From the IMG/VR virus record IMGVR_UViG_3300018878_000121, positions 106,354 through 126,353 of that record: a stretch of DNA of 20,000 nucleotides; one strand, 5' to 3'. The notes beneath the pieces were generated by a model. The model had not been told where the DNA came from. It searched no databases and worked only from the letters and a program-made list of their open reading frames with translations. Positions 1 through 20,000 of this stretch are shown here, one piece after another. Each line of letters opens with the position of its first letter. Position 1 is the stretch's first letter. The translations under genes were made by a program, and so were the position numbers. The stretch comes from an uncultured virus (IMG/VR IMGVR_UViG_3300018878_000121). Lineage: Duplodnaviria; Heunggongvirae; Uroviricota; Caudoviricetes.

Positions 1-228
1 TTCTACTTGACCCACATTATAGATATAAGACCTTAATTCTTCAAGCTCCTATTGAATTGGTTCAATTTTACTGTCAATTGTTTCATTCAATTTGTCAGTC
101 TCTTGGTCTGCTAAAAGCTTTTTATAATTTTTCATTTGACTATGCATATATTTACAAAAAGCTAAAGCACCAGCAGAAATTAAACCAAAAATAATTTCAA
201 TGAAATGTTCAGTTAAAAAAGCTAACAT
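1..228 (-). CDS. Holin-like membrane protein, partial (runs off the window end); 1 in-frame TAG at 49-51
   Basis: ATG at 228 after an AAAGGGG RBS. Translation MLAFLTEHFIEIIFGLISAGALAFCKYMHSQMKNYKKLLADQETDKLNETIDSKIEPIQ(TAG)ELEELRSYIYNVGQVE: one N-terminal hydrophobic helix then a coiled coil. The holin call is inferred from this architecture only. Confidence 0.6.
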
Positions 229-234
229 TATAAC

Positions 235-291
235 AAATCCCCTTTCTTAAAATTTTTTCTCACACTATATCAATTTTAAGTAAGGGGATTT
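235..291 (-). promoter_or_regulatory. Stem-loop sequestering the RBS of the holin-like gene
   Basis: Inverted repeat 272-291 / 235-254. On the mRNA, AAAUCCCCUU-A-CUUAAAAUU pairs with AAUUUUAAG-A-AAGGGGAUUU (19 bp, one A/A mismatch, 17-nt loop). The 3' arm contains the Shine-Dalgarno sequence. Confidence 0.7.
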
Positions 292-307
292 TATTTATTC
301 AGACCAA
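266..307 (-). promoter_or_regulatory. Putative phage-specific promoter motif, copy 1 (TTGGTC-N29-TGATATA)
   Basis: Same spacing as the copies upstream of nrdD and the intron endonuclease, but a weaker match in the second box. Confidence 0.4.
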
Positions 308-786
308 TCAAATGATTTTGCCTAAGAGTTTAGATACCAGTGACCAATACATATTGCGTCACTTTCATCTTCTGTAGCTTGTTTATTATAAAGCGTTTTT
401 ATTAATAACTAAGCTTCTTTTTTCTACTCTGGACGAGTTCTACTTTTTATACCGATTTTACTTTTCCATACTGTAGCTAATACAGCTTCAACTGGTATAT
501 CTAATTCTACAATCAATTCATAAATAACACCAAATACTTCTGCTAATGTTTTAAAGGTTTGAACATTTCCTGTTACATTAGATTGAAGTTGTATATCTTC
601 CATTATAACTTTATTAATAGAATAAGTATCAATTAATTGATGAACATTTTTTCTAATATTAAGCAATCTATCTCCTAAATCGGATTGATTACAAGTAAAA
701 TGTCCATAATCAATTAATTGATTATCTTCAAATATAGCATATCCAGTTATTTTAGAAGACTAATCTAAAGATAAGATTCTGCTCAT
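295..786 (-). CDS. ruvC: RuvC-like Holliday junction resolvase, 163 aa; 4 in-frame TAGs (760, 424, 409, 322)
   Basis: With TAG=Q: MSRILSLDQSSKITGYAIF...VIMEDIQ...VWKSKIG...RPEQKKEAQ...EDESDAICIG...WSE-TAA. The RNase H/RuvC acidic residues (D8, E, D-x-x-DA) are present. ATG overlaps the dut stop (ATGA). Confidence 0.85.
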
Positions 787-1478
787 ACTGATTCAAAAAC
801 ATCTGCTTTTAATCCAAGAGAATTAAAAACATCAAGTAATTTTTCATCAATTTTAATTTCGTTATTTAAATTAATTGATTGTAAAGAAGTAGAACCAAAT
901 CCGCCTGTTCGTAAGCCAATAGCTACATCATCTTCAATGGTATAATAAGGTTTAATAATTCCTTGACCAATAATATCTCCTCGTTTTAATTGAATATCAA
1001 ATGGAGATAAATTAATTAATTGAAAGAAAATTTCACCTTCATTATCAGGATTATTATAATAATCAGCGTCAATAATACCAACTCCATTAGCAAGAATAAG
1101 CCAATATTTTAAAGGAGTAGAAGACCGCACGCTTAATTCAAGATAAGTATTTGGAAGTAATTCACATTTCATTCCAGTAGAAACTAAAGAAGGTTTAATT
1201 TTTGATGCTTTAGTAACAGCGGCAACATCTTCAAGAGTATAAGGTTTACTCATCTTTTGCGCAAGCTCATATTCAGCCTTCTTCTTTTCTTCTGAGTCAA
1301 TTACATTCTAATGTAATTGGAATAGTTCATATCTACCAAGCCAATTCAATTCTTCAGAACAAGATGGAATTATAATATCTTCAGCTACAACAAAATCATA
1401 TCCAGCGCTCTGTTCTGTTTTTCTAATTGGTAAAGGTAAATCAATATCATTAAATCTACTTACTTTTTCAAATTTCAT
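783..1478 (-). CDS. dut: Trimeric dUTPase, 231 aa; in-frame TAG at 1308-1310
   Basis: Motif 1 (SAGYDF) lies upstream of the TAG, in frame with motifs 2-5 (RSS, GIIDADY, GQGII, RTGGFGST). ATG at 1478 overlaps the upstream TAA (TAATG). Confidence 0.92.
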
Positions 1479-1723
1479 TATTCTACCTCATAATTAATAT
1501 TAACAAAACTTATCGGGTCTTTTTCATCATTGAAATGTTTGTTTAAAGTAACTTTATACCAACTATCAATAACTGCACCTTTAGATTTTCTTTCTTTAAA
1601 TTCACTAGAATATTTTGCTAATGAAAATTCAGTAGCATTCTTAGCTTCATCAATAATTTCTTTTACTTCATTTTCATTATCTACTCTATATACTTCAATT
1701 GTACTTACAAGATATTTTGACAT
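1478..1723 (-). CDS. Hypothetical protein, 81 aa
   Basis: ORF with a GAGG RBS, tightly packed between its neighbours. Confidence 0.75.
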   Translation of the reverse strand: MSKYLVSTIEVYRVDNENEVKEIIDEAKNATEFSLAKYSSEFKERKSKGAVIDSWYKVTLNKHFNDEKDPISFVNINYEVE

Positions 1724-1724
1724 T

Positions 1725-1985
1725 TTAATTTACCTCAATATTAATTTTTTTAGTATTATAATTTTTTACATTATACATTTGAATATCTTCAATAAAACCT
1801 TCAAGATATCCTTCATTACCATATAGGTGAATATTGTATATATCATATGTATAACAACTACTAACAATTACTTCTGCTAAATTATCAATAGTTGTTGAAG
1901 CTATTTCTCGCTTACCATTATCATCATAAATAAATATATACTAATCAGTATTAAATAAATTAACTGAACTAACAATATAACTCAT
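1725..1985 (-). CDS. Hypothetical protein, 86 aa; in-frame TAG at 1941-1943 (absent from the ORF track)
   Basis: GGAGG RBS, ATG at 1985, MSYIVSSVNLFNTD(TAG)YIFIYDDNGKRE...INIEVN-TAA. It exactly fills the gap between the flanking genes. Confidence 0.75.
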
Positions 1986-1986
1986 T

Positions 1987-2385
1987 TTATCCTCCATATG
2001 AAACCATTAAACCTTCACAATCAAATAAGCACATACATAAATTTTCATCTTCATTTGTCCGCACCCAAATTTCAATTGTATCAGAAGCTTCCATATAATC
2101 AACAGTAATAATCTTACCAATATCTAAAGCGCAAGTAAGAACTGCTTTTCCTTTATTTTCAAAATCCGATTCGTTTGCTTTTGGATAGAAAATAGTATAA
2201 TAAGAAATTTCTTTACATAAAAGCATTAAATTTGAATAATTTTTCATTTTATCATTAATTAATTCAATATAAGGGTCTATATTATCTGCTATTGGAAGCT
2301 ATGAAACAATAGATTTATTTAAATCATATAGATTCATAGAAATATTTCCATAATCTTTAGATTCTTTTTTTAAATTACACTTCAT
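1987..2385 (-). CDS. Hypothetical protein, 132 aa; in-frame TAG at 2299-2301
   Basis: AAGGAG RBS and ATG at 2385 just downstream of a consensus promoter. In frame with the track ORF 1987..2247 through one TAG (NKSIVS-Q-LP). Confidence 0.75.
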
Positions 2386-2415
2386 TATTTATCTCCTTTT
2401 TTATTTTATATAATA

Positions 2416-2444
2416 ATTATATCATATTTTTTTATTTTTGTCAA
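2416..2444 (-). promoter_or_regulatory. sigma70/sigmaA-type promoter
   Basis: TTGACA (2444-2439), 17 nt, TATAAT (2421-2416), with an extended -10 TG. Perfect consensus. Confidence 0.85.
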
Positions 2445-2904
2445 GATAAATAATACGTTGATTGCGGCTTCCTCTCATAGGAAGTGTAATGTCTCTTTCA
2501 GCTTCAATATAAGGTCCATCAATTAAACAAGTAATTAATTCTAAAATTTCTTTTATATTTGGATTATGAGGTAAATCATCGTAAGTATACCCTGTCCATA
2601 AATAAATTTCTGTATCTGGTAATTTTTCTTTAACAGTTTTTATTACCAATAAAGTCAAAAAAGTATTTTCAGGACATAAAGGTTCTCCACCCAAAATACT
2701 TAAAGAACGCTTAATACCATTAGCTTGAAGAGCTTCAATTATTTCATTAATTACATCAGTAGTAAATTCTAGTCCTCCGTCATAATCCCAAGTTTCGGGA
2801 TTATGACAGCCAAGACAATGATGCGGACATCCTTGAGTATAGAAAGAAACTGATACACCAGTTGCCGCAGAAAAATCATTTTTAATTAAACCTGCATATC
2901 GCAT
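2422..2904 (-). CDS. nrdG: Anaerobic ribonucleotide reductase activating protein (radical SAM)
   Basis: CxxxCxxC motif GCPHHCLGCHNPETW, plus LGGEP, DGPY and RGSRNQR. Confidence 0.95.
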   Translation of the reverse strand: MRYAGLIKNDFSAATGVSVSFYTQGCPHHCLGCHNPETWDYDGGLEFTTDVINEIIEALQANGIKRSLSILGGEPLCPENTFLTLLVIKTVKEKLPDTEIYLWTGYTYDDLPHNPNIKEILELITCLIDGPYIEAERDITLPMRGSRNQRIIYLDKNKKI

Positions 2905-3533
2905 TATTCTTCCTCCTCTAAGTCTAAATCATGAACATCATCTGGATTAGCTACTTCGTAATAAAATATACATCTACAACTGGGATGATATGGTGGGAGA
3001 TTAACATCTTCATCTGGCGGATATTCTCCGCCTTCACACATATCACATCCACTTTCAATTACTAATAAAGTAGCATTAATAGGTCTTTTATTTTTCTTTA
3101 CTGCATTTTCTACATTTTTAGTTTCTGTATTTAAAATTCTTTCAAATTTATAAACTAAATTATCTCTTATTTCTTTATAAGTTTTTTCTTTTAAAATATC
3201 TTGTCTTGTCTCTTCCCAAATTAAAGACAATCTATCTTGAATTGTTTTTCCATCTTCTTTATAAGTTAAATCAAAGATATTTTTGATATTAAATTCTTCT
3301 ACTTCTTCATATAATTTTTCTATATATTTACTTGTAATAAGATATGTTTCAGTTAATGATTCATAAAATAAATCTTCAATTTTTTTATATGCTTTATCCC
3401 AAAGTTTAATATTAAAATTATTTGAATATTCTCTGACAGCTTTTAAAGATTTATTTATAATTTTTTCAAAATATTTATCTTTAGATTCGTCAATTAAATC
3501 TTCTAATTTAAGTATTTCTTTTCTGATACTCAT
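2904..3533 (-). CDS. MuF / SPP1 gp7-like head morphogenesis-domain protein, 209 aa
   Basis: C-terminal CDMC...PPYHPSCRC resembles the PPxHPxCRC motif of the Phage_Mu_F family, and ERILNTE resembles its R-I-x-RTE motif. Confidence 0.6.
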   Translation of the reverse strand: MSIRKEILKLEDLIDESKDKYFEKIINKSLKAVREYSNNFNIKLWDKAYKKIEDLFYESLTETYLITSKYIEKLYEEVEEFNIKNIFDLTYKEDGKTIQDRLSLIWEETRQDILKEKTYKEIRDNLVYKFERILNTETKNVENAVKKNKRPINATLLVIESGCDMCEGGEYPPDEDVNLPPYHPSCRCIFYYEVANPDDVHDLDLEEEE

Positions 3534-3538
3534 AACAA

Positions 3539-5830
3539 TTATCCATGTTTAACCCTTCGCTCTACCTCATCTTGTTTACCAAGGTTAAAAGCAGTTTTAT
3601 AATTACCAGTTAAATAACCAGTAACTCTACGCAATTGTTGAATTTCTTTACTTCCGCATTCTGGACATTCATCATTAAATTCATCAGTATATCCGCATTT
3701 AAGACAAGTATCATTTGGAACATTTACTGCGAAATAAGGAATATCTTTATCCATAGCATAATTTACTAAAATTTCTAATGCCTCAAGATTATTTTTAATT
3801 CCACTATCCAATTCAACATAAGTAATACATCCAGCAGAAGAATAACAGGTTAATTGAGATTCAATATCAATTTTTTCAAATGGAGACATCTCTATCCACA
3901 CAGGTACATGCATAGAATTAGTAAAGAATTCTTTATCGGAAACATTCTCAATTACACCATATTTATCTTTAAATTTCTTTAAAGCAGTATGACATAGGTT
4001 TTCCGCAGGTGAATAATAAACACCAAAATTTAATTTATATTCATTTTTAAATTGAGCACAACGAGTTTTAAACAATTCTTCAATTCGTTTTGCTAATTCC
4101 ATTCCTTCTGGAGTAGTATGATTTTTTCCAATAAGAATTTGAAGCGTTTCAGCAAGACCTAATTGTCCAAGAGCAAGGGTACCATGCTTAAGAGCGGAAC
4201 GTATTCCTTCTTCTGGAATATATCCTGCCATAAGTCCATTTTCATACATAAACTTAGCAGAATCAGGAGATTGACTACAAATCCATTCAAATCTTTCAAT
4301 AAGCATATCTTTAGCATCATATATTGCTTTATCAAGAATTTCCATAAAAATATCTACAAGTTCAGTAGTATATTTATATTTATCTGTAAATTGATTTTCC
4401 CACTCTTCTTTTGCTTCCATGGCTAATGTAGGAAGAATAATTGTTACAGGACAAATATTACCTCTACCATCTTTGAGTTGACCAAAACCATTAATATCCC
4501 AACCATTTGCTGTGCGGCATCCCATCGTTGAGAAATAAGTTCTTGGGTCATTAATATCATATCCAGCATTACCAGACCAATCAACATTTGCGTAATTGGG
4601 ATATAGTCTTTGAGCGGTTGATTTTAAAGCCAATTGGAATAAATCATAATTGGGGTCTCCAGGTTTACGATTTACACCTTTCATACATTGAAAGATTCCA
4701 CAAGGGAAAATAGATGTTTTATGTAAAGCTCCAATACCTTCAATGGATACTTCAAGCAAAGCTTTAGTCACCATTCTACCTTCTGGTAAAGTACAAGTAC
4801 CATAATTAATAGAAGTAAATGGCAACTGATTGCCTGAACGAGATTGAAGTGTATTAAGATTATGATACATTCCTTCTACGGCTTGATGTGTTTCTTTTTT
4901 TGTTTCAAATAGAGCTGCTTGACTTAAATATTTATCAAGATTAACAATATTACTAAAAGTGAAATCTTCATATTTAAGATTAAATTCTTTTAAATATTTT
5001 TCTTTATGATTTTCAACCCAATTATCTAATTCTTCATTTGGCATATCCAAAAGAGACAGAGCTAAAAATTCGTCAGTATGTTTTACATATTCTAATACAT
5101 AATGTTTAAAAAATGATTTGCGTATATAAGGCACCATGGTCCAGTCAATATGTGTCGCAGAAACACCACCAAATTGTTGTAAACTTTGTAATTGGAAAAT
5201 AACCGCTACAAGCTGAAATGCTGTATTTACAGAACCTGCGGGACGCACATCTGTTTGTCTGGTATTAAATCCTTTAGCAAGCAAATCATCAAAAGGAATA
5301 GATAAGCAATTATGTGAACCAACATAATAACTATTTAAGTCATGAATATAAATACGATTATTTAAATGATTTTCTCTTGCTTTTGGTGATACAATAAAAT
5401 CTAATGCTAATTGTTTCGTGACCACATCTCCAGCTTCACCTGTGCGGCCTCCAAAAGATGCTTCATCTACATTAGCATTTTGGTTTTGGATATTTGTAGC
5501 ATTTAATTTTTCTTTAACTGCGTCAATAAAATCATTTTCATAATGTCTAGCAACTTCTTTTTTATATCTATAACGAATATATTCTCTTGCTACATCACTG
5601 CGTTCAGAACGCATTAAATATTCTTCAACTTTATCTTGAACTTTTTCAACAGTAAATGGTTTATCTGAATTATGTACAGCATCTTTATAAATAGCTTCCG
5701 CTATATCAGCAGCTGTATCTGTTTCATAAAGTTTTCCATCAACTTCAAGAAAAGCTTTATTTATTGCGGTAATAATTTTACCTTTATTAAAAGGAACAAG
5801 TGTTCCATCTCTTTTATAAATTTGTACCAT
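3539..5830 (-). CDS. nrdD: Anaerobic (class III) ribonucleoside-triphosphate reductase with N-terminal ATP cone
   Basis: ATP cone (IYKRDG...KI..AI), IHDL, HNC, MGCRT, PAENL, Zn-site CLKC/CPEC and the glycyl radical motif RRVTGYL. Confidence 0.97.
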   Translation of the reverse strand: MVQIYKRDGTLVPFNKGKIITAINKAFLEVDGKLYETDTAADIAEAIYKDAVHNSDKPFTVEKVQDKVEEYLMRSERSDVAREYIRYRYKKEVARHYENDFIDAVKEKLNATNIQNQNANVDEASFGGRTGEAGDVVTKQLALDFIVSPKARENHLNNRIYIHDLNSYYVGSHNCLSIPFDDLLAKGFNTRQTDVRPAGSVNTAFQLVAVIFQLQSLQQFGGVSATHIDWTMVPYIRKSFFKHYVLEYVKHTDEFLALSLLDMPNEELDNWVENHKEKYLKEFNLKYEDFTFSNIVNLDKYLSQAALFETKKETHQAVEGMYHNLNTLQSRSGNQLPFTSINYGTCTLPEGRMVTKALLEVSIEGIGALHKTSIFPCGIFQCMKGVNRKPGDPNYDLFQLALKSTAQRLYPNYANVDWSGNAGYDINDPRTYFSTMGCRTANGWDINGFGQLKDGRGNICPVTIILPTLAMEAKEEWENQFTDKYKYTTELVDIFMEILDKAIYDAKDMLIERFEWICSQSPDSAKFMYENGLMAGYIPEEGIRSALKHGTLALGQLGLAETLQILIGKNHTTPEGMELAKRIEELFKTRCAQFKNEYKLNFGVYYSPAENLCHTALKKFKDKYGVIENVSDKEFFTNSMHVPVWIEMSPFEKIDIESQLTCYSSAGCITYVELDSGIKNNLEALEILVNYAMDKDIPYFAVNVPNDTCLKCGYTDEFNDECPECGSKEIQQLRRVTGYLTGNYKTAFNLGKQDEVERRVKHG

Positions 5831-5870
5831 TAATAAATCCTCCGAAAATATTAATTTGGGGCGACCCTAT

Positions 5871-6455: not shown

Positions 6456-6681
6456 TTATGTCAATAGCCTCATCTTCATATTCATATTTTAATTGATTAG
6501 GTAATTCATTACGATAAAAAGTATATTTCCTTTTACAGGTAGGACAAAAATAAACATACTGTTCAGGATAAGTACATAAAACTTTACCAGTACTTTTTAT
6601 TTCTTCATTACAATCTTCACAATAAAAGCTATCTATATAGATAGCTTTTACATATCGTCTTTTAATTTTCATCTTCTTCAA
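6442..6681 (-). CDS. Small zinc-ribbon protein
   Basis: Two CxxC pairs (CEDC, CPTC). Overlaps both neighbours. Confidence 0.7.
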   Translation of the reverse strand: MKKMKIKRRYVKAIYIDSFYCEDCNEEIKSTGKVLCTYPEQYVYFCPTCKRKYTFYRNELPNQLKYEYEDEAIDINEEV

Positions 6682-9169
6682 TTCCTCCTTGATAACGTTC
6701 CGAAGTTAATTTTAAATCAGTTTTATTTACAATTTCTTCAATTTTATACAACTGATGACCTGGCGTACTATTGTATTTTTTAACAATAAAATTATCTCCA
6801 GAACGAATACCCATAACCGCAATCATATTACCACGATTAAACCAAGATTTTTCTACAATCTTTTTAGTTCCATCAGGATTTTTGATAGAAATTTGTTTAT
6901 CAAATAAAGAAAAATATTCTTTTCTAAATTTAACTTCTACAACTCCATGAGTTGTTAATAACGTTACTGTGCTTTTAACCTTATTTTTTGCTATACAGGT
7001 TCCGCAAATTTTATGAAGTTTAAACATATGAATTTCTTTTCCTCCACGAGCAAACACTTGGTCTACTATTGGTTCTTCTGGCAAAGCAAAGAAATCAACA
7101 AATCCATATTTATTATGATTTACATCAATTAATTCATGTTCGTGATAATAAAAACATAAAACTTCCATCTCCCAAGCAGAAATTGTACCTGAAGCATATT
7201 TCTCCCAATCTTCAAGAAAAACAGCATCATTTATTTTTACTAAGATTTCATCTTTATTTTCATTAATCCATGTTCTAAAAATATCCATCCAATTTTGATA
7301 AATTTTTTCCCATTGCTTAATATTCATAAAGAAAATTGTATCTTTTGTTATAATCAAATTATCACAATGTACTTCAATAAGAAAATTAATAGCTCTTTCA
7401 TCTAATTTATATAATTCATTATTAAATTTACAAATTGCTTTTAAATAACGATTAAATTCATATACTCTTCTTGCTAAAATTTGTTCTTCAGTTTCAGATG
7501 GAAGTAGATTATATTTAATTAATCCACCCATATTTTGTAGAGTAATTCTTTTTTTTCTATCGCAAGTTTCCCAAATATACCAAGCCATACAAGTTTTACG
7601 TTCCATCATATCATCAAAAGCTCCACCCTTAATCAATGAAATCATAGCTTGCTTGCCTGGATTTACTTTATTCAAAAAATCTCGCGGAGATACATAAGGT
7701 CTATGTTCAATGATAGATGCTACGACATCATCACCAACATTTAATAATCCTTTTAAACCAAAAAGAATTCTATTGTTCTCAGCATCTGGCGCAAAGCCAT
7801 ATTTAGATTTATTAATATTTGCTAAACTAACTTTAATACCAGCAGCTTGAATATCACCAATAGCTTTCGCAATTTTACCATAATCAGTACTTGCGCCAGC
7901 TTCTTCATCAGTTGCGCCACTATTAACAATTAAACAAGCTGTATTCCAATAGATAGGATTAAATTTAGTTGCCAATAAAATTGTTTGAATACCAACAAAT
8001 GAATAAGGTAATGAATGATTTAAACTAAAAGCATATCCAAGTTGTGGAGCGACCGCAACTTCCCAGACATAATCTGCTATATTAGAATTTCCAATTTTTT
8101 CATACACTTGCGCTTTTAATTCCGGAATTTTTGACATCTGTTTTTTTGCTACTATTTTACGAGCAGCGTTTGCTTCACCTAAAGTAAAATTAGCAACCTC
8201 CATCAAAATTTCCATCATTTGCTCTTGGATAGGACAGCAACCATAATATTTATCACAATGTTTATGCATTAACTCAATCATTTTTTCAGGCAAATGATTA
8301 AATTTCATTTCTTTATCAAAAATATTAATTCCTGATTTTTGAATGCGAGCATATCTATCTTGCTGACTTTCTTTACCTTTTTCAGACATAAGTCTCATCA
8401 TAGCATTTGCGGCAGTCATCTCTAAAGGATTTTGTGGTTTAAGTTTTTTCGCAATTGCTAATCCAACACCACCACTAAACTGAAATACATCCAATATATC
8501 ACCTGCGGCTAAATGATTCCAAATATAATTTTCAGATGTGTCAATTATTTCTGGATGAATATATTTATTATAAGTTTCTCTTAAACCAATATTTTCAATT
8601 AAATTATCCTCATGTAACATTTCAAAACATTTAATAATTTTATCAGAAACTTCAGTTACAAGAAAATCATATTTAGTATCACCTGCTGCTTCCGCCGCAT
8701 GTAAGTCAAAACAAGTAATTAAATCTCCATTTGGTGCTCTCATAAAAGATGCTGTATCAAATGGATTTTTATCATAAAGAATTACACCAGAAGCATGAAT
8801 GCCACGTTTATTTACTAATCCCTCTATTGAAATGATAATATCAACCAATCCAGGATATTGATTAACTTCTTTTATAAAAGTTGTAACTGGTTTTCTATCT
8901 TTTTCTTCATCACCATATAATACTTCTGAAATAGACCATAAAAATCCACGTTCTTGAGGAATTAATGATGACATATATTGCGCTACATCTACATCTATTC
9001 CTTCTGGATATTCTTCACTTCTATAACCACGACAAGCTGTAAGAACAGCTGATTTAGTTCCTTCAGTTCCAAAAGTTGCTACCTGAACCAAACCAAATTC
9101 TCCACGTTCTTTACGAATTGCTTCAAAAATCGCTGGTCTTTTACTTGGAGCCAGGTCTATATCAATATC
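6662..9169 (-). CDS. dnaE: DNA polymerase III alpha (family C), exon 2
   Basis: The frame is open from 9169 (DIDIDLAPSKRPAIF...). Contains GIHASGV, KYDFL, QEQMM, GYAFSLNHS, the HhH region GLKGLLNVG and a C-terminal OB fold. The spliced product would be 1292 aa. Confidence 0.93.
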   Translation of the reverse strand, partial: DIDIDLAPSKRPAIFEAIRKERGEFGLVQVATFGTEGTKSAVLTACRGYRSEEYPEGIDVDVAQYMSSLIPQERGFLWSISEVLYGDEEKDRKPVTTFIKEVNQYPGLVDIIISIEGLVNKRGIHASGVILYDKNPFDTASFMRAPNGDLITCFDLHAAEAAGDTKYDFLVTEVSDKIIKCFEMLHEDNLIENIGLRETYNKYIHPEIIDTSENYIWNHLAAGDILDVFQFSGGVGLAIAKKLKPQNPLEMTAANAMMRLMSEKGKESQQDRYARIQKSGINIFDKEMKFNHLPEKMIELMHKHCDKYYGCCPIQEQMMEILMEVANFTLGEANAARKIVAKKQMSKIPELKAQVYEKIGNSNIADYVWEVAVAPQLGYAFSLNHSLPYSFVGIQTILLATKFNPIYWNTACLIVNSGATDEEAGASTDYGKIAKAIGDIQAAGIKVSLANINKSKYGFAPDAENNRILFGLKGLLNVGDDVVASIIEHRPYVSPRDFLNKVNPGKQAMISLIKGGAFDDMMERKTCMAWYIWETCDRKKRITLQNMGGLIKYNLLPSETEEQILARRVYEFNRYLKAICKFNNELYKLDERAINFLIEVHCDNLIITKDTIFFMNIKQWEKIYQNWMDIFRTWINENKDEILVKINDAVFLEDWEKYASGTISAWEMEVLCFYYHEHELIDVNHNKYGFVDFFALPEEPIVDQVFARGGKEIHMFKLHKICGTCIAKNKVKSTVTLLTTHGVVEVKFRKEYFSLFDKQISIKNPDGTKKIVEKSWFNRGNMIAVMGIRSGDNFIVKKYNSTPGHQLYKIEEIVNKTDLKLTSERYQGGIEEDEN

Positions 9170-9291
9170 CGTTTATTGGACTATATTTTTCATAATGACT
9201 TACTAAGAGCATTTTACTTCAGTCATTACTAGAACATCTTTCAGACGGTGCTTATCTCCGCCTTACATAAATAGTCTCTACACATTTAATC

Positions 9292-10074
9292 TTATTTTTC
9301 TATTTGTTTCCAATAATAGCCTTTATATAAAGTTCCATTTTTAATCGCTTTATCTAATTGAGTGTGTCCTTTCATTCCTAAGAATTGTAAGACTGCGGTT
9401 TTAGCATTAAATATTTGAATTAAATTGTAATTTTCATCATACATTTCAATTCGTTTTCCATTTAATGCTTGATTACCACTTTTACCATACATACCATTTT
9501 TTTCGCCAGCGGTTTTACCTTTACTATTTACAGACATTTTCTACTTAGACTCTTCTGTATGTTTTTTACCATACATTCCATTATTAGAACCTTTTGTTTT
9601 TTCACTCATTTTTTGTTTAAACTCTTCAGTTCTATAAGGAGAGTTGTCTCTTTCAAATTCTGCCCAATAAGATAAAAATGCTTTAGTTTTTTCACTATGG
9701 TATTTTCCATACATTCCATTATTCTTACCACGATTTACTTCACTTAATTTTCGGCACAAAACTTCTTTTTCTTCTGGTGTATATCCTGCGGTAGTGTTTC
9801 CTCCACAACCGCCCTCATGAATATTATAAAACAATGGATTTGATGTGGCATTATATAAGGCAATAAATTGTTTTTCTTTTTCACTATTTTCTAAATCATT
9901 TTTAGAAACAAATAAAATGGACTTTGTAAAACAGTCTTTTCCATATTTGGCAATTTCTTTTTTCAATTCTTTTCCGCTGCCTAAATATGAATCATCTAAT
10001 TCTCCATAATGTTTTCCGATATATTTCATACCATTTATATTATTAGTAGTTAAATAAATATAATGTTGTTTCAT
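9292..10074 (-). CDS. Intron-encoded GIY-YIG homing endonuclease with NUMOD3 repeats and a C-terminal NUMOD1-like HTH, 260 aa; in-frame TAG at 9541-9543
   Basis: YIY...KYIG N-terminus and three G-x-N-G-M-Y-G-K repeats. Track ORFs 9541..10074 and 9292..9537 are in frame and join as KHTEESK(TAG)KMS. RBS is AAAGGGGG. Confidence 0.9.
9485..9723. repeat. Coding direct repeats underlying the NUMOD3 modules
   Basis: ccatacattccattatt occurs at 9569-9585 and 9707-9723, with a variant ccatacataccatt at 9485-9498. Confidence 0.7.
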
Positions 10075-10094
10075 TTAAACAACCCCCTTTCATA

Positions 10095-10138
10095 TATATT
10101 TAACTTTTAGAATTAGACAATGACCTGACTTTGTCCAA
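10095..10138 (-). promoter_or_regulatory. Putative phage-specific promoter motif, copy 3 (TTGGAC-N29-TTAAATATA), internal to the intron
   Basis: Directly upstream of the endonuclease RBS, with the same spacing as the nrdD copy. Confidence 0.5.
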
Positions 10139-10351
10139 GATTTTTAGCACGGTATTCCCAATCTAACCTTTTTTAGGTCATAGGGTCTCTTAGTCAGTTG
10201 ATTCGCATTTATATAACATAAATCTTATTTCGCTGATACCGTTAGCCTGCGGTTACTCGTCTCGCCGGTCGGATGACCGGGCCGCCGCAGACACCCATTA
10301 AGCAATGGTTAATGTTCTTTTTTTACAACTGCCCAATATCAATATTAGACT

Positions 10352-11722
10352 AGGCAGTTCGGCTCTCTCTTTATTTAAAAATCTCCAATAAGGGAGACCC
10401 CAACGAATTGGGTCAAGTTGAGTAATACCAAGCAAATAATTTGAAAGAAAACCGGTCGCAGAACCTCGTCCAGGTCCAACAATTGAACCGCATTCCCAAA
10501 ACAAATCAATATAATGTTTAAAAGTATTGAAATAAGCGAAAAGACAATCATCAAGTTTTTCTCCAATAAACTTAATTACATCTGCCTCAATTTCAATACG
10601 ATTAATATATTCTTCATTAAATAAATTTTTATTTATTAATTCTTGTAGACATTCATTAATCCAATATCTTTCTTGAGATTCATCAGATATTAAAAGTGAT
10701 TTAATAATCGGCCAATTAGTATCTAATTCATCTTTTAATGAATTATTAATACCAAAATAAGATAAAGTTTTAGGATAATCTTTTACTTTTACTTTTGGAA
10801 TAATTTGTTTTCTTTCAATTGAATAAAATTCAATTTTATTTTTTATTTCATTTGTATTATTTAAAATCCATTCTGAAATATCATCATCTTGATAAGCATA
10901 TGTTAATAATTCTTTAGCTTCATTATAATCCATTAAACGAGCAAATTCATAAAATGAATCAACTTCTCGTTCTCCACCTTTAGAATTTAAATAAGCTTTA
11001 TGAACCCATCTATCTTGACTTGTATAATAATGAGCATCAGTTCCTGCGACTAATTTAATTCCAAAAGATTGAGAAATAGAGTATAATTTTTTATTAACCA
11101 ATACTTGGTCTTTTGTAGTTGCTGGGGCGCATTCTAAATAGAAATCATCACCAAATAATTCAAGACAATAATTAATAAAATCAATTATTTTTGAATAATA
11201 TACTTTCATTGTTTCCATGTCTTGAACTTCTTCAGCTAAACAAAATTGTAATAAATTTGATGATAATTCTCCACCAAGACAAGCTGTTGTAGCTATTAAA
11301 TGTCCTTTATATTTATTAACAATAGTTGATAATTCTTTTTTTAAAACTGGAACTCTTTCCATTTTTCTATCAACATATAAATTATACCAAGCTATTGAAC
11401 TTAATTCTTTTAATGCCATATAACCAATTTTATCTTTGGCAATTAAAATAAAGTGATAATATTTTTGACCACTACTTCTATCATCTGTTAAATAAATTTC
11501 ATTACCAAGTGCAATTGTAAAATCTGGATTTGTCTCTCTCAATTTCTTAGCATATTGATTTACTTCCATGTGCGCAGATAAACATTCATGGTCTGTAATT
11601 GCTATACCGTTTAAACCCAATTCAATTGCTTTATCAATTAAATCTTTAGGTCTATTTATACAATCAAGTAAGCGAATATTTGAATACATTGTATGATTAT
11701 GACAATTAAAATAACTGTTCAT
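10352..11722 (-). CDS. dnaE: DNA polymerase III alpha (family C), exon 1 (PHP domain and start of the palm)
   Basis: PHP motifs HNHTMYS, ITDHE and TDAHY, then GPGRGSA...LLGITQLDP...RFLNKER. The last 17 codons of the track ORF are intron sequence. Confidence 0.93.
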
Positions 11723-13173: not shown

Positions 13174-13175
13174 TT

Positions 13176-13409
13176 TTAATCCTCTTTATTATTTACATGA
13201 GCATGTACTAATTGTTCTAAACAATTATAAAAGTGCATTTTTTGAGTTTCTGCTTGATTATGTTCTTGTTCATAATCATGACTACGCTCTGCTTTTAATC
13301 TAGCAACTTCGTCACAGAGAATAGCATATCTAAAATAAATGCTATCAAAACCAAAATCTAATCTATCTTTATATAAATTTTCTAATGCTTTTTCCTCTAT
13401 TGTAATCAT
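13176..13409 (-). CDS. Hypothetical protein, 77 aa
   Basis: AAGGAG RBS and ATGA overlap with the upstream gene. Confidence 0.7.
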   Translation of the reverse strand: MITIEEKALENLYKDRLDFGFDSIYFRYAILCDEVARLKAERSHDYEQEHNQAETQKMHFYNCLEQLVHAHVNNKED

Positions 13410-13765
13410 AAGTTAAACTCCTTTATAAAATTTTCGTACCATTTATCAATTTGCTCAAAAATTTCTAAATCACTTTTTTCTTTTGGTTTCTCGGTCTCAG
13501 CTTCCAACACCGGCCGGAGCAATTTTTCCTCCATTAAATAGACAGTATTCATTATATGGTCATATGTAAGCAATTTATTTTCAGTATCATTAATCCTAGC
13601 ATCTAAATTTCTCACCTAATCTTCTATTGTGTCTATACGACCGTAACGACCAAGTGCTTTAACTATATCTGTAACTTCATATAATGAAATTCTATATTTA
13701 TCTTCAAATTGATTTTCAAACCATGTGAAATTATCTTCACCAAGCTTTATTTGAGTTTGTATCAT
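13406..13765 (-). CDS. Hypothetical protein, 119 aa; in-frame TAG at 13616-13618
   Basis: GAGGGG RBS and ATG at 13765. MIQTQIKLG...IDTIED(TAG)VRNLDARIN continues into track ORF 13406..13615. Confidence 0.75.
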
Positions 13766-13804
13766 AAATATATTTACCCCTCACTTATTATTATTTCTAT
13801 ATAT

Positions 13805-13833
13805 ATTATATCATATTTTTTTATAAAAATCAA
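13805..13833 (-). promoter_or_regulatory. sigma70/sigmaA-type promoter
   Basis: TTGATT, 17 nt, TATAAT with an extended TG. Confidence 0.75.
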
Positions 13834-13858
13834 AAAGGGAAGATTTTATTCTTCCCTT
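13832..13858 (-). terminator. Rho-independent terminator after the lysozyme-like gene
   Basis: Hairpin AAGGGAAGA-ATAAAA-TCTTCCCTT ending in a U tract. It overlaps the stop codon and abuts the next -35 box. Confidence 0.65.
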
Positions 13859-14676
13859 ACAAAATATTCATATGCTTTTAAAGCATTTGTTTTTCTTACA
13901 GAATAATAAGCAGAATTGCAACGTTCATAACTTTTAGCAAAAGCTAGTGCTACTTCTTGAGCATCTTGTAATGCTAAAAACTTTTCATATGAAAAATCTT
14001 TTTGATAAGCGCGCCCAAAAGTATTAATTTCATATTCAATAGTATCTCTTAAAAAATCACATTGCTCTTGTAAACTTCCACCCACAATAGAACTATAATA
14101 TGTGGTATTCCATTGGCACATTCCATAATGAACTTTGCCACCATATAGCCAATATTGAATATCTAAAGTATTACCTCCAACTTCAGCCATTATATTTCCT
14201 AAAATACCAGCAATTACATAATTATTATATCCTAAATTTTTTAAATATAACCAAATTTCTGTTGCTACTGGATAATCTGTTTTTCTTTCTAACCAGAAAT
14301 TATAATCATTTGTATATTTAGTATATAATTCATGTGCTTCTTCCCATTCTCTTTTGGCTAATTGAATAATTAAATGATTATCTTCATATCTAAGAGCCCG
14401 AGCCATTTCTGCCATTTGATGAGCAATTTCTTTTTTATCCTGATAGTAAGAAATTTTTGTTGTTAAAATTTCTAAATCATCGGTTTCAATATATTCATGT
14501 GGAATAGTTTTTTCTGTTGAATATACTGGTTCACATTCTTCAGCCGGTACATCAGCTACACAAGTTGAAACTGGTGATAATATAATTGGTTCATCAGCTT
14601 TAATTAAAGTAGTATTTGGATTTATGTGAAAGAAAATAGATAAAGTTAAAGTGAATACAATAATATATTTTTTCAT
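13846..14676 (-). CDS. Secreted or membrane-anchored phage-tail-lysozyme-like (Phage_lysozyme2) protein, 276 aa
   Basis: AGGAG RBS before MKKYIIVFTLTLSIFF (signal-peptide-like). C-terminal IWLYLKNLGYNNYVIAGILGNIMAEVG...YGMCQWN...FAKSYER matches this family's pattern. Confidence 0.75.
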   Translation of the reverse strand: MKKYIIVFTLTLSIFFHINPNTTLIKADEPIILSPVSTCVADVPAEECEPVYSTEKTIPHEYIETDDLEILTTKISYYQDKKEIAHQMAEMARALRYEDNHLIIQLAKREWEEAHELYTKYTNDYNFWLERKTDYPVATEIWLYLKNLGYNNYVIAGILGNIMAEVGGNTLDIQYWLYGGKVHYGMCQWNTTYYSSIVGGSLQEQCDFLRDTIEYEINTFGRAYQKDFSYEKFLALQDAQEVALAFAKSYERCNSAYYSVRKTNALKAYEYFVREE

Positions 14677-14714
14677 AATTTTTCTCCTAATATTTCTATT
14701 AGGTCTATCGTGTT

Positions 14715-16460
14715 TTAAAAATAGTATGTTTGTTTTCCTGTAATTTCGTAATCTTCTATAATAATTTGCGGACTTACAATACCATTCCAAATATTTCGCT
14801 CGCATTTGCCAACGATATTAATTGTTACACAACCTAAATTAGAATATAAAGATTCATATTCTTCTTTAGACGACCTGAATTTAATTAAACTCATCCCATT
14901 TGGAAGTGTAATCTTTAGAGTAGGATTTTTATCTTCAGACATTAACTTTAAATTTTCATTATTAATTTTAATATTTTCAATCGCAATTAATGGTTCTTCT
15001 ACTCCTTGACCCCAAATTGTTTTTAAGTTGGCTAATTCTAAAACATCATTAACATTCATGTCATTATGATTAAAAATATAATCAACTTTATAACTAGGGA
15101 TAAACTCAAAATCCTTTAAATTATCATTAGCATATTCAATAAACTTATCAATTCTATCATTTGTAAAAGCGCATCCAAAGGCTTGAGCATGACCTTCCGC
15201 AAATTCGTCAAGATGGCTTGATATAATAAATTCTCTAAAATTATCAAATTTAGAATTACTTAAACCTCTACCAGAACCTTCCCAAGAATTATCATCTTGT
15301 TCATTTAAAAGTAATACTGGCTTTTGATATTTAGACATTAATTGATTTGCGATTAAGCCTGTTAAATTCTTATCAATAGAATATTTTTTTGGTAATTGAA
15401 TTACTAAAATTTTATTTTTTAAAAGATTTTGTTCTTGAATGAGATTTTCAATTATTTCCAAGCTCGTGTCTCTTGCTTTAGTTTGTCTATTTTTAATATT
15501 AGAGCAATTACGACAAGCTTGTTCTACCCTTGTCTCTGTTTGACCTTGACATCCACGCTTAGTTGAAGAAATCATTTTATAACCTAAATGGTCTAACATA
15601 GATTCAAATAGAATTAGCTTTTCATTTTGCGTGCCAACCCGAATGGTTGCGTTGACATAAGGAGCAATATAAAAAGCTATACCGAATGGTGTTAACTCAC
15701 CTTTTAATGAAAAGGCTTGTTTATCTACCATTCCTTTAAAAAATGGATTACGAACTTGTTTAATACCACATCTAATTAAATGTGTAGTTTCAAAATCTCG
15801 TAAATCCATCATATCTGCTACCATACCAAGAGCAACTAAATCAAGAAATTGATTAGCATAATCTACATCTAAAAGTTCATCAATATATGAACAAAATTTA
15901 TAAACCATACCAACACCAGACAGTGATTTTGTAGGATAATCACATAGTTGATTATTAATTACGCAGGCATCTTCACATTCATATTCAGCTTCATGATGGT
16001 CAATAACTAATACATCTATATTTTTAGATTTTAATTCTTTACATTCATCATAGCTATTGGAACTAGAATCTGGAGCAATAACTAATTTAATGTTATTAGT
16101 AATAGTTTCTGGAATTATACCATGCTGTTTTCCAGTATGTAATCTATAGTAGATATGATTTGACACAAAAGATGGAAATAAACAATTTAAATAGTTTATA
16201 AGAGCGGCAGCGCTTGTGAAGCCATCAGCATCACTATCTACTTGAATCATTATATCATCATTTTGTGCTATATGTTTAATAAGCATTTTAGCTCCATTAT
16301 TAATATTTTTAATTAAAGAAGGAGATAAAATGTCATTATCAGTTGTATTGAGGTAATGCTATACCTCTGCCAGAGGAATTCCTCTATTTGTTAATACTCT
16401 CTATACCGCAGTTAATTTTATTTTTTGTGGAATAGATGAATCTATAAGCTTATATTCCAT
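14715..16460 (-). CDS. recJ: RecJ-like DHH-family ssDNA exonuclease, 581 aa; in-frame TAGs at 16401 and 16359
   Basis: DSDADG, DHH, GMVADMM, GSGR and GHAQAFG motifs. The N-terminal RVLTNRGI motif and an AGGAG RBS lie upstream of the track start and are reached only through the two TAGs. Confidence 0.88.
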
Positions 16461-16476
16461 ATTTATCACTCCTATT

Positions 16477-16779
16477 TTAATAGAAATTATAAGCAGTAAA
16501 AGGAGGAGCGCTTGTACTAGGTCTAATGATATTATGTCTTATTTCTACTGGAATATTATTATCTATATAAGATATATTACATTTAACGCCACGACTTAAT
16601 TCAGTAGCTTTTTTTACCATCCAGTAATCGCCATTAGTAAAATGTACTTCATATTTATATTTATTACATTGTACATCTTCAATAATATTTTCACCATAAT
16701 ATCGTACATAACTGTCTATAATTTCAGTTAATTTATTACAAGCATATTCAAATGTATTTCCCCAAACTATACCTTTCAT
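16477..16779 (-). CDS. Hypothetical protein, 100 aa
   Basis: AGGAG RBS and ATGA overlap with the primase stop. Confidence 0.75.
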   Translation of the reverse strand: MKGIVWGNTFEYACNKLTEIIDSYVRYYGENIIEDVQCNKYKYEVHFTNGDYWMVKKATELSRGVKCNISYIDNNIPVEIRHNIIRPSTSAPPFTAYNFY

Positions 16780-17876
16780 AAAATTATTCTCTCCTTAAAC
16801 AATTGTAAAAATTTATCCATTCCTTCATCTATTGGACTTGCTTTATAATTAGTTATCATATTTTTATCAAAAATAAATGAAATATTTACAAAATTCTTAT
16901 ATTTAGAATATAATTGTAATAAATTCTTTTTTAAGTGTTTAAATTCATCATCGCCTATTTGTTGAAATTGTCTGTCAAAAGCAACAATAATTTCTTGCAC
17001 TCCCATTTCTATTAATAATTGAATTTGATAAGATGAAATACTACTACCACAACAAGAAACACTAATATCATTTTCTTCACCGAAATAAGAACGATATAAA
17101 AGATTAGATTTTTCGCCTTCAAACACAATAGCTTTTTTCATAATTTTAATATTATCTTTACTGTGATTTAAATTGTATAAATTCATTCCAAGAGGATGAT
17201 TATATAACTGTTTATTAACTTTAATTGGCCTATATTTTCCATATCGTTCAGCATCATCGGCGCAAAGTGTGCGGCCGCGCAGCCCCACGAATCTATTATC
17301 TTTATCAAAATGAGGAATCGTGATTTGGTCGCCTCCTGGATAATAACCAATACGAGCATTTTTCATTGTCTCTAAACTAATTCCTTCTTTAATCCAAGGA
17401 CTAATTATTACATTATAATTAAATCTATCAAGAATATTATTATCATATTCTTTTAAAATAATATTATTAGTTTTTAATTCAATTTCTTGAATTCGTTCAT
17501 AATTAGAAAAATATTTCCAATCTTCTAAATCAGATTGATTATCTTCTTCTATAGAACCAGAAATACCAAATTTTTGAGCAATCCAACGAATAGCATCATT
17601 TAAATCAAATACTTGATTATGTTGAATTTTCATAATTTTTATAACTAATTCAAAAATATCAAAATAAGCATCACAACCAGTATAACATTTAAATAAATTA
17701 CTATTTTCATAATAATATAATTTTCTACTTCCTTCTCCGGGGTAATTATGGCAAATGGTGGAGGATAAAATGCCAAAATTTGAATATTCTGGTTCTCCTC
17801 CCCATTCTTGTAATAAATCATATATATTATGAATTGTTAAATTATCTCTAATTTCATTCTTATCAAATACTATCAT
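16776..17876 (-). CDS. DNA primase (Zn-binding domain plus Toprim)
   Basis: CHN...CYTGC Zn motif, ITIPH...GLRGR, VFEGEK and IIVAFD. Located next to the helicase. Confidence 0.85.
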   Translation of the reverse strand: MIVFDKNEIRDNLTIHNIYDLLQEWGGEPEYSNFGILSSTICHNYPGEGSRKLYYYENSNLFKCYTGCDAYFDIFELVIKIMKIQHNQVFDLNDAIRWIAQKFGISGSIEEDNQSDLEDWKYFSNYERIQEIELKTNNIILKEYDNNILDRFNYNVIISPWIKEGISLETMKNARIGYYPGGDQITIPHFDKDNRFVGLRGRTLCADDAERYGKYRPIKVNKQLYNHPLGMNLYNLNHSKDNIKIMKKAIVFEGEKSNLLYRSYFGEENDISVSCCGSSISSYQIQLLIEMGVQEIIVAFDRQFQQIGDDEFKHLKKNLLQLYSKYKNFVNISFIFDKNMITNYKASPIDEGMDKFLQLFKERIIL

Positions 17877-18049
17877 TAAAAAGTTAATACGCGGGTAACA
17901 GGTCTAAGAAGACCATATTGCTCATTGACTACCTTACAAAGATATTCATTAGGACGCATTTTCTTATCAAGCCCATCACGACTTCTTAAAAGTTCCTTAG
18001 CTAATTCTTCAGGCATCTTATACTCAAAATAAGCATTCTTGTTTTCCAT
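17876..18049 (-). CDS. Hypothetical protein, 57 aa (not in the ORF track)
   Basis: GAGG RBS, MENKNAYFEYKMPEELAKELL...VTRVLTF. Its TAA overlaps the primase ATG (TAATG). Confidence 0.75.
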   Translation of the reverse strand: MENKNAYFEYKMPEELAKELLRSRDGLDKKMRPNEYLCKVVNEQYGLLRPVTRVLTF

Positions 18050-18063
18050 AATTATTACCTCTC

Positions 18064-19605
18064 TTATTCATTATATTCAAAAGCTGATTCTTCATCTAAT
18101 TTAATTTTGATATCTTTCATATCTATTAATTCATAATCATATGAAGTACAAAACATAGGTTGAATTCTACAACAACCCAAATCTGCTTTACACCATAAAT
18201 AAACACCTTTATAACGTCCTCGTCTATTTTTATAAACAGACAATTTAATTGTGGGTTTATCAAAAACATTAGTTGCTAAAATTGTTTCTAAAGCTTGAAT
18301 ATCTTCTTCTTTTACATTTAATAAAATCGCACCCACGTCAATTTTATCGGCAATTGCTTTAGCACCTCTCAGTAATGTTTGGTCTGGAGTTTTTGATTCG
18401 GCAAAATCACCATTTAACTGCGTTGCTGACATAATAAACACTCCATATTGATTACAAATATCTTTTAATCGTGTAGATAACATAAATAAAATATTATCTT
18501 CACGCAATTTAATACCGCCACTTCTTCGCGTTATTTCTTCAAGAATTTTTAAACTTGTATGAATATAGTCATGAAAAATATAATATACATCATGGTCACG
18601 AATATTTCTTTTAATTGTATTTTCTACATCTTTTAAAGAAAAATCTGGCAATTCTTCTACATAAAGTGGAGCATTAGATAAGATTTTAGCTGCTTCTAAA
18701 ACCCTTTCTTCTTCATTACCATCATATTGACCATTTAAAATATGCTCTTCATTAACATTAGATATAAAAGCTAACATCATAGTTTGAACTTCTTCAAGTT
18801 CCTGTTCTGTTGTAATGAACAATACTGGTCTATTAACACCACAACTAATCCATCCAAAAGATTCATCATAAATTTTATTACAAGCAATATAACAAGCATC
18901 AGCTATCATACTTCTTGTTTTTCCAACACCTGTAGCTGCTGAACGCAAATAAAATTTTTTTAATCTTGCTCCACGAGTAACTGTATTAATCAATGGTCCA
19001 TATAATGGAACACCAACTTCTGGATGTTGTTTAAATTTATCAATCAATTCAAAAATTCCATCGGCGGCTTGACTGGCTTCTCCATCACTATCATCCACAT
19101 ATTGAAGTCTAATATTATCAATTTTTTTATCAACTTGGTCAGCAATCTCTTCAAGATTTACATTATCCAACCAATCTTCTTGAATTTGTTTCTTTTTTAC
19201 ATCAAGAATATTATTTGGGTCATATAAATCAGAAATATCAATGCCGCAATTATCATAAGCTCTTAAAAGAGTGAACTTTTTTAATCTATTATAATAATAA
19301 TCAAATGTTGAACTCATACAAGTTTCAGCAGCTTTTAAAATCCACTCTTCACCTTTTTGTTGTTTATATATTGCCGCACTTTTTGGTCTATTGGATAGAA
19401 AATCTGATATATTTTCTAATGTAATTTTTTTTGCTCCCAATTCATAAATTTTATAAATTGCTCCAAAAATTATACGATGGAATTCATCTGGAAAATCTTC
19501 ATCTGTAATAATATATTTATCAGTAAAATCTAAAATTTGCGGTGTATTATATACACATCCAATTACTTGAATAATTGCTTGTATATCTACATATTGTGAT
19601 GCCAT
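18064..19605 (-). CDS. dnaB: Replicative DnaB-like helicase (SF4)
   Basis: N-terminal EDF...HRIIFGAI, Walker A AATGVGKT, ITTEQ, DYIH, ATQLN and KNRRG. Confidence 0.9.
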   Translation of the reverse strand: MASQYVDIQAIIQVIGCVYNTPQILDFTDKYIITDEDFPDEFHRIIFGAIYKIYELGAKKITLENISDFLSNRPKSAAIYKQQKGEEWILKAAETCMSSTFDYYYNRLKKFTLLRAYDNCGIDISDLYDPNNILDVKKKQIQEDWLDNVNLEEIADQVDKKIDNIRLQYVDDSDGEASQAADGIFELIDKFKQHPEVGVPLYGPLINTVTRGARLKKFYLRSAATGVGKTRSMIADACYIACNKIYDESFGWISCGVNRPVLFITTEQELEEVQTMMLAFISNVNEEHILNGQYDGNEEERVLEAAKILSNAPLYVEELPDFSLKDVENTIKRNIRDHDVYYIFHDYIHTSLKILEEITRRSGGIKLREDNILFMLSTRLKDICNQYGVFIMSATQLNGDFAESKTPDQTLLRGAKAIADKIDVGAILLNVKEEDIQALETILATNVFDKPTIKLSVYKNRRGRYKGVYLWCKADLGCCRIQPMFCTSYDYELIDMKDIKIKLDEESAFEYNE

Positions 19606-20000
19606 TAAACATCATCCTCCTATTCTTCATCCAAAAACGTAAATAATTTTCTTTTTGGCTTAATTTTTCGTTTTGGAATTGGAATAATTATTTCTTGTAC
19701 TTCCGGCACATATTCTTTAATTACTTTATTTTCATTTTTTTGTTTAGCTTCCCATAAGCTATAATAATAATTAAAAGCATTTTGATACACATATGGAACT
19801 ATACCTATACCACCATTTGCTTTTTCAATATCACCATTTTTAACTTCATAATGATAAACTAATGCTTTTTGAATTCCAGAATATGTATATTTATAATTAT
19901 TTATATATTCATTAATTTGTTTACGAATACGAGCATCCACATATGAAATATTAAATAATTTCATAATATAATTTTCTAAATCATTTTTTTCTTTTTCAAA
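19605..20000 (-). CDS. Hypothetical replication-associated protein, partial; in-frame TAG at 19620-19622
   Basis: The frame is open to the window edge. Read-through gives ...FLDEE(TAG)EDDV-TAA, with the TAA overlapping the dnaB ATG (TAATG). Confidence 0.7.

Follow-up and report, generated by a model that had tools for sequence, protein, structure and literature searches.

Phages that read the amber codon TAG as glutamine (Gln) have been described from the gut, and for crAss-like phages this recoding has been presented with peptide evidence (Peters et al. 2022, PMC9523058). Another case is phAss-1, of the proposed Phassvirus, a human gut phage of ~136 kb whose terminase, portal and tape measure genes are described as interrupted by TAG codons read as Gln; its description lists three tRNA-SUP-CTA genes, gives no synthetase beside them and places it in a broader group together with Enterococcus phage EF1 (PMC10607447). 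The 'Agate' clade of ~127 kb animal-gut phages is reported to contain standard, TGA-recoded and TAG-recoded members, with recoding concentrated in structural and lysis genes, DNA replication genes spared and release factor 2 (RF2) noted in two TAG-recoded members (Borges et al., bioRxiv 10.1101/2021.08.26.457843). Here we have analysed a stretch of 20,000 nucleotides (called the window from here on) from an uncultured tailed virus, IMG/VR record IMGVR_UViG_3300018878_000121, in which TAG codons lie in frame within the genes. The window is the final 20 kb of this single 126,353-bp record (30% GC, no terminal repeat). We put at about 0.92 the probability that this phage reads TAG as Gln (genetic code 15) and that its late genes are opened by a phage-encoded suppressor in a host that uses the standard code.

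The contig is ~71% complete according to CheckV and is best explained as part of a tailed phage of roughly 175 kb from the ruminant gut or faeces; the matching sequencing runs are of bovine and sheep origin (gut or faeces), seven of them (X1-X7) contain 82-99% of the sequence words sampled, and none of the matches listed is an RNA run. The cultured phages closest to it belong to the large siphoviruses of Bacillota, Enterococcus phage EF1/VRE9_4 among them.

TAG as a sense codon

Comparing coding density under the standard code and with TAG as sense was a check proposed in the preliminary description, and over the whole contig, with density computed by greedy cover of open reading frames (ORFs), the values were the following (mean lengths in amino acids, aa).

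Table 11: density 0.66, mean ORF 126 aa
TAG as sense: density 0.89, mean ORF 232 aa
TGA as sense: density 0.69, mean ORF 130 aa
TAA as sense (control): density 0.86, mean ORF 161 aa

In the 60-70 kb bin the density goes from 0.35 under code 11 to 0.98 with TAG as sense, and the plus-strand block at 44.5-106 kb then becomes a normal structural module, with a sigma-like factor, terminase, portal, tape measure and tail proteins. The ORFs recovered with TAG as Gln include a tape measure protein of 3306 aa (78 TAGs) and two tail proteins, one of 1787 aa (28 TAGs) and one of 2050 aa (25 TAGs), and PHROG models of the portal, terminase and tape measure match across the TAG-containing ORFs. More generally, homology continues on both sides of the in-frame TAGs of conserved genes in Pfam, PHROG and tblastn alignments. 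It had been claimed that every complete gene ends in TAA or TGA, which is true by construction once TAG is read through; the actual test, an indirect one, is the spread of the codon along the ORFs, and this came out in favour of the claim. The 365 TAGs are evenly distributed over ORF length (25-48 per decile, 35 in the last one) and, since the last decile shows no excess, TAG is apparently no longer a gene terminator. Furthermore, the code-15 ORFs of at least 150 aa hold 324 in-frame TAGs and neither TAA nor TGA in frame. All this supports TAG being a sense codon in this phage.

The residue for which TAG stands was sought in codon-level alignments to 77 and 118 related loci, the 77 being terminase relatives from IMG/VR at 60-98% identity. 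At 74 TAG positions these 77 loci provide 3693 aligned cells, which include CAA (1116), CAG (413), TAG itself (529) and codons for Lys (285), Glu (204) and Thr (164), with TAA and TGA both absent. In a likelihood ranking that uses substitution frequencies learnt from the same alignments, Gln came first with all relatives included (-6776), more than 4000 log units ahead of the runner-up Lys (-10915). Circularity was avoided by repeating the comparison with the 18 loci that have no in-frame TAG and thus follow the standard code. Facing our TAGs, these have Gln in 63% of 840 cells, vs 62% at true Gln columns, and Gln is the plurality residue at 43 of 67 positions; the likelihoods from these loci alone are -1423 for Gln, -2896 for Glu, -2917 for Lys and -2992 for Thr. 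Reciprocally, the TAGs of the relatives stand opposite 4.7% of our Gln residues and opposite at most 0.7% of any other residue. The meaning that the preliminary description had proposed from context thus holds for the homologues: their columns at TAG sites are enriched in Gln, and the likelihood places Gln first. We show here by alignment that TAG is conserved in frame and evolves exactly as a Gln codon.

Gene blocks, suppressor tRNAs and alternative explanations

TAG is unequally used by the gene blocks of the contig.

Late structural block: 286 TAGs, 15.3 per 1000 codons, 37% of TAG+CAA+CAG
Left 44 kb: 6.2 TAG per 1000 codons, 21% of TAG+CAA+CAG
Replication block of the window: 2.3 TAG per 1000 codons, 6% of TAG+CAA+CAG

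The core replisome genes (DnaE, DnaB, SF1 helicase, NrdD, NrdG and Gmk) are entirely free of TAG. RuvC, though in the replication block, has four; this enzyme acts late, on branched DNA. The same pattern is described for recoded gut phages, whose replication genes can still be read in the standard code (Borges et al., bioRxiv 10.1101/2021.08.26.457843).

The clade of 77 terminase loci comprises 18 with the standard code, 51 recoded at TAG, four near-identical to the focal phage and four recoded at TGA (L042, L043, L056 and L079, with 8-20 in-frame TGAs mostly opposite our Trp). Over the terminase-region genes, the loci of this three-code clade (L011-L087) are on average 48-74% identical in protein sequence to the focal phage. 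Rfam matches 25 tRNAs in G001 and 23 in G002, two genomes with the standard code, and none of these is a tRNA(CUA). A tRNA(CUA) was found in five of the six large TAG-recoded relatives: G003, G006, G007, G008 and G009 have one or two each (38-59 Rfam bits), usually located at the far end of the main tRNA array or past it. In G010 no tRNA(CUA) was detected within the 10 kb fetched. Among the five large recoded relatives searched, one (G003) encodes RF2 (L226:865-1929, plus strand, 426.7 bits with prfB vs a cut-off of 370, SPF and GGQ motifs, no in-frame TAG) and none encodes a glutaminyl- or glutamyl-tRNA synthetase (GlnRS, GluRS). The RF2 gene of G003 is divergent from a sigma-like factor gene. 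In the code-15 phages described so far, an accessory RF2 or aminoacyl-tRNA synthetase occurs in a minority of cases and so does not strictly define the group.

We propose that the phage infects a standard-code host in which its TAG-poor early and replication genes would be translated first, being readable by the host. The phage would then express an amber suppressor tRNA(CUA) of its own, of the Gln type, as the complete recoded relatives do, and thereby open the TAG-rich late genes, with RF2 as an optional aid (seen in one relative). For the focal phage we infer this decoding step by analogy with those relatives. We predict that the suppressor gene is in the part of the genome that the contig does not cover, likeliest just past the left end, where the tRNA array is cut; in the relatives the CUA tRNA is usually at the far end of the array or past it.

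Several results weigh against this reading. The timing, with the standard code early and code 15 late, we infer from the codon distribution and the literature. Reading TAA as sense also raises the coding density, to 0.86 at 30% GC, and since this control is likewise high in an AT-rich genome, density by itself is poor evidence; the regional pattern, as in the 60-70 kb bin, does not share this weakness. Neither ARAGORN (default settings, introns allowed, lowered thresholds) nor Rfam (gathering score and E-value searches) detected a tRNA(CUA) on the contig, and this 71%-complete fragment has no RF-1, PCRF or tRNA-synt_1c domain; the CUA tRNA, RF2 and GlnRS that it had been suggested to look for are all missing from it. 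The recoded relative G004, 87% complete, has no tRNA at all. Against the distant cultured phage VRE9_4 alone, 152 TAG columns face Lys 23 times, Gln 15 times and Glu 15 times, half of these columns belonging to the low-complexity tape measure protein. Seven of the 13 TAGs of the window lie in variable columns (Glu, Lys, Arg, Pro, Ile or thin cover) or have no relatives to compare. Finally, the labels of metagenome-assembled genomes to which related contigs belong are conflicting as to the host (Agathobacter, 'Tenericutes', Erysipelotrichaceae, Treponema, Bacteroidales, Bacillota) and were not used.

The absence of decoding machinery from the contig, and of any tRNA from G004, would suit a phage in which TAG means Gln with no switch of its own, either because the host reads TAG as sense or because a host tRNA suppresses it constitutively. 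We consider this improbable. The contrast between zero TAGs in the core replisome genes and 37% of the Gln-type codons in the late genes would be unnecessary in a code-15 host, which weakens such an explanation, and recoded relatives have CUA tRNAs of their own whereas standard-code relatives have none.

There is very little room for TAG being a sense codon for another residue (Glu, Lys, Ser, Tyr or pyrrolysine). The first place of Lys in the comparison with VRE9_4 alone and the Glu, Lys and Arg seen at several TAG columns of the window would fit it, as would the long variable arm, typical of Ser, Leu and Tyr tRNAs, in three of the six CUA tRNAs of the relatives, and the label 'Pyl' given by ARAGORN. 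Against it stand the likelihood gap and the equal conservation of Gln at TAG and true Gln columns among the standard-code loci, and also the tRNAs themselves. In all six, position 73 is G and the 1:72 pair is weak or mismatched, as in eight phage tRNA-Gln genes, and four of them have G2G3, acceptor ends that look Gln-like. Three are long-armed, with 90-95 nt (L207:11061-11151 in G003, L211:1170-1259 in G006 and L212:10186-10280 in G007), and combine a type-II-like variable arm with the weak 1:72 pair, G73 and an anticodon loop reading CU-CUA-AA, two of the three also having G2G3; the others (L216:952, L218:655 and L218:928) have a normal 75 nt. The phages with long-armed tRNAs also place TAG at Gln columns, with 46-58% Gln, Gln as plurality at 15-24 of 32-40 positions and no excess of Ser, Tyr or Leu. 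Naming the parent of the CUA tRNAs by pairwise tRNA similarity with free end gaps was given up as too noisy, and the features of the acceptor end were used in its place.

That TAG is still a stop, with the genes being pseudogenes of a decaying phage or the codons assembly or sequencing errors, has a negligible probability: the contig lacks a suppressor tRNA and TAG 19620 falls just five codons before a TAA, but TAG as stop would shatter the terminase, the portal and the 3306-aa tape measure with its 78 TAGs, identical TAGs occur in independently assembled contigs, dozens of relatives share the TAGs or swap them for CAA or CAG, and the code-15 ORFs of this phage contain neither TAA nor TGA in frame.

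The amber suppressors of this clade may not be mere copies of tRNA-Gln, and if the focal phage has one of the long-armed kind it would be using a chimeric tRNA architecture, an idea that we advance as doubtful. Many Bacillota have no GlnRS and obtain Gln-tRNA by way of GluRS and GatCAB, two enzymes that inspect the body of the tRNA; a chimeric architecture, if true, might acquire Gln by a non-canonical charging route. A full-text search of the literature gave, among the matches listed, no paper on amber suppressors with a long variable arm.

On the contig, tRNAs are found at 0.2-8.5 kb, 17 called by ARAGORN plus two more matched by Rfam (6784-6848 and 343-462). Some candidates for a CUA anticodon were rejected. 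Two 'cta' calls at -ps80 (90687 and 123216) are among ~55 extra low-threshold calls in coding regions and have no Rfam match at the gathering score; the tRNA-like gene at 7435-7509, with an 8-nt loop (agga), is not CUA, and the one at 6784-6848 reads GCA. The tRNA-like element at 343-462 (minus strand, outside the window; 32 Rfam bits, above gathering) has its anticodon loop interrupted by a 47-nt insert; ARAGORN calls it at a lowered threshold only, with an unclear anticodon and no CUA reading. A comparable insert-bearing tRNA-Tyr is called in the standard-code relative G001. At 4910-4998 (minus strand) ARAGORN calls a tRNA-Ser with the unusual anticodon ACT (A34), and the same call is made in the relative G009.

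At the left end, exact-match scans of viral and metagenome contigs with two stretches gave no extension. At the right end (window 19999), three contigs from other samples are 100% identical at the junction, in a match that reaches the second-last base of our contig, and extend 4.4-9.6 kb further, with genes continuing on the same strand, some of them with TAGs (L168:1-9606). Because these contigs run on past the junction, the record is incomplete there and this is not a genome end. The 9.6 kb past the right end (in L168) contain no tRNA.

The TAGs and genes of the window

Under table 11 the minus strand of the window appears as a replication module with several unusually short or split ORFs. 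Pfam identifies in it RuvC, dUTPase, NrdG, NrdD, guanylate kinase, a DnaE polymerase in two pieces and a GIY-YIG/NUMOD3 endonuclease, together with an SF1 helicase, a lysozyme-domain protein, RecJ and DnaB. Listing the ORFs with TAG as Gln reproduces the layout given in the preliminary description, 13 in-frame TAGs in nine genes, all on the minus strand. The positions obtained by script are 49, 322, 409, 424, 760, 1308, 1941, 2299, 9541, 13616, 16359, 16401 and 19620, and all of them read CTA on the plus strand.

1..228 (contig 106144-106581), minus strand: N-terminal part of a gene of 145 aa whose 3' end lies before the window; TAG 49-51
295..786, minus strand: RuvC-type Holliday junction resolvase, 163 aa; TAGs 322, 409, 424 and 760
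783..1478, minus strand: dUTPase, 231 aa, Pfam dUTPase match at residues 94-181, ATGA overlap with RuvC; TAG 1308
1725..1997, minus strand: hypothetical gene, 90 aa; TAG 1941 (relatives CAA 3, CAG 2, AAT 3, TAG 2)
1987..2385, minus strand: hypothetical gene, 132 aa; TAG 2299
9292..10074, minus strand: GIY-YIG/NUMOD3 homing endonuclease, 260 aa; TAG 9541
13406..13765, minus strand: hypothetical gene, 119 aa; TAG 13616, read-through based only on ORF structure
14715..16469, minus strand: RecJ-like exonuclease, 584 aa; TAGs 16359 and 16401, within the N-terminal 61 aa
19605..19964, minus strand: hypothetical gene, 119 aa; TAG 19620, five codons ahead of TAA

Each of the 13 TAGs is identical in two or three near-identical contig loci of other IMG/VR records (L088 and L204 being one contig), and seven of them (1308, 1941, 2299, 9541, 16359, 16401 and 19620) are also covered by contigs from the runs X6 and X7 that match the window identically. 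In the bovine-gut run X8, a strain ~96% identical has an A>G change at 426 that converts the TAG at 424 to CAG. The TAG columns were also compared with related loci fetched around NrdD and DnaB, and there the commonest state other than TAG is Gln at six of the 13 (760, 424, 409, 1941, 2299 and 9541). The columns of 49, 1308, 16359, 16401 and 19620 are variable, with Lys, Glu, Arg, Pro or Asn in the relatives.

It had been argued that read-through restores conserved motifs; the Pfam matches of RuvC and NUMOD3 do cross TAGs. The RuvC match (E=1.8e-10) goes from residue 4 to 147 of 163 and spans three TAGs, and the ORF matches E. coli RuvC 1HJR across residues 4-156. The best stretch of the NUMOD3 match (E=4.3e-18), at 149-181, runs over the TAG at residue 178. 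In dUTPase, TAG 1308 links the N-terminal 56 aa to the Pfam-matched core, the two parts into which code 11 splits the gene (1308..1478 and 783..1253). In RecJ the DHH, DHHA1 and RecJ_OB matches start from residue 73 onward, and the alignments of relatives continue through both TAGs.

Within RuvC the relatives have CAA 21, TAG 15 and GCN (Ala) 7 at position 760, which bears out the earlier argument from the context LD[Q]SS; TAG 27, CAA 11, CAG 2 and AAR 3 at 424; and CAA 19, CAG 9 and TAG 5 at 409, with thin cover at 322. Position 2299 has CAA 6, CAG 2, TAG 2 (plus two near-identical contigs) and AAA 2, and 9541 has CAA 2, CGA 1 and ATA 1. At 49, a variable Lys/Glu column, they have AAA 13, GAA 12, TAG 2, GAT 2 and AGA 1; the second TAG of the same 145-aa gene falls outside the window (at window -95), and relatives have there CAA 21 and TAG 9. 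The other variable columns show AGA 15, a gap 4 times and GAC 4 at 1308, with no Gln, GAG 23, GAA 19 and CAG 2 at 16401, and CCT 12, GAC 9, GAA 6 and TAG 3 at 16359. The only relatives at 13616 are three near-identical contigs, all with TAG. Reading through TAG 19620 yields a TAATG overlap with the start of DnaB, and relatives align across it (GAA 5, AAT 5, GTG 2); among the 13 it is the least well supported, and it could be a stop at little cost.

The gene of the DnaE-type polymerase is split by a 1209-nt insert (window 9092-10297) that carries the GIY-YIG/NUMOD3 endonuclease. The two pieces of the gene are as follows.

10298-11722, minus strand: first piece of DnaE
6662-9169, minus strand: second piece of DnaE

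DnaE is contiguous in 38 of 40 related loci, and the insert is present only in two that are near-identical copies of the focal phage. The second piece is homologous from 9169 onward, ahead of the first ATG, GTG or TTG, a hint of splicing. In the insert, Rfam gave no match to a group I intron at E<=1. Elsewhere, window 13794-13870 contains a terminator-like hairpin and, after it, a near-consensus sigma-70-like promoter (TTGATT, 17 nt, TATAAT) ahead of the gene at 13406-13765. A depth spike at 13794-13837 was discarded as a feature of interest: this AT-rich, promoter-like stretch attracts many unrelated metagenome contigs and loose ends.

Comparison with known systems

The preliminary description had likened this phage to Lak and crAss-like phages, a likeness that is right in kind, although the phAss-1 group and the 'Agate' phages are closer analogues. 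Like our phage, the crAss-like and Lak phages are gut phages described with TAG read as Gln in late genes, and the suppressor tRNAs are theirs; they are unrelated lineages with Bacteroidota hosts, whereas ours groups with phages of Bacillota and is known from sequence alone. phAss-1 shares with it the TAG codons read as Gln in terminase, portal and tape measure and a lineage related to EF1, but is described from the human gut, not from cattle and sheep, and with three suppressor tRNA genes where our fragment has none. Members of Phassvirus have 82.7-86.4% nucleotide identity with phAss-1, according to its description (PMC10607447). Because the terminase protein of phAss-1 is only 42% identical to ours, the focal phage appears to be a distant relative and not a member of Phassvirus. 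The 'Agate' clade, likened here by its described traits only, resembles ours in size, habitat, the three codes, the bias of TAG and the presence of RF2; the cases published in detail are TGA-recoded, while ours is TAG-recoded.

Enterococcus phage VRE9_4/EF1/H1 are the nearest cultured relatives, with 49% identity in the terminase. Their structural and replication modules are syntenic with ours, and RuvC, dUTPase, Gmk, DnaE, helicase, RecJ and DnaB come in the same order, but they use the standard code and have DnaE as a single gene of 1284 aa, which in ours is split.

For annotation, our contig and dozens of its IMG/VR relatives are badly mis-called under table 11, which fragments the terminase, the portal, the 3306-aa tape measure and the tail genes; table 15 is needed for them, and four relatives require table 4. 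The recoding of TAG to Gln in gut phages is already established, and this contig is a solid new example of it. It adds a well-documented lineage, from the ruminant gut and grouping with phages of Bacillota, to the phages that seem to gate their late genes by a change of code, and with standard, TAG=Gln and TGA=Trp members together this lineage is suited to studying how codes flip.

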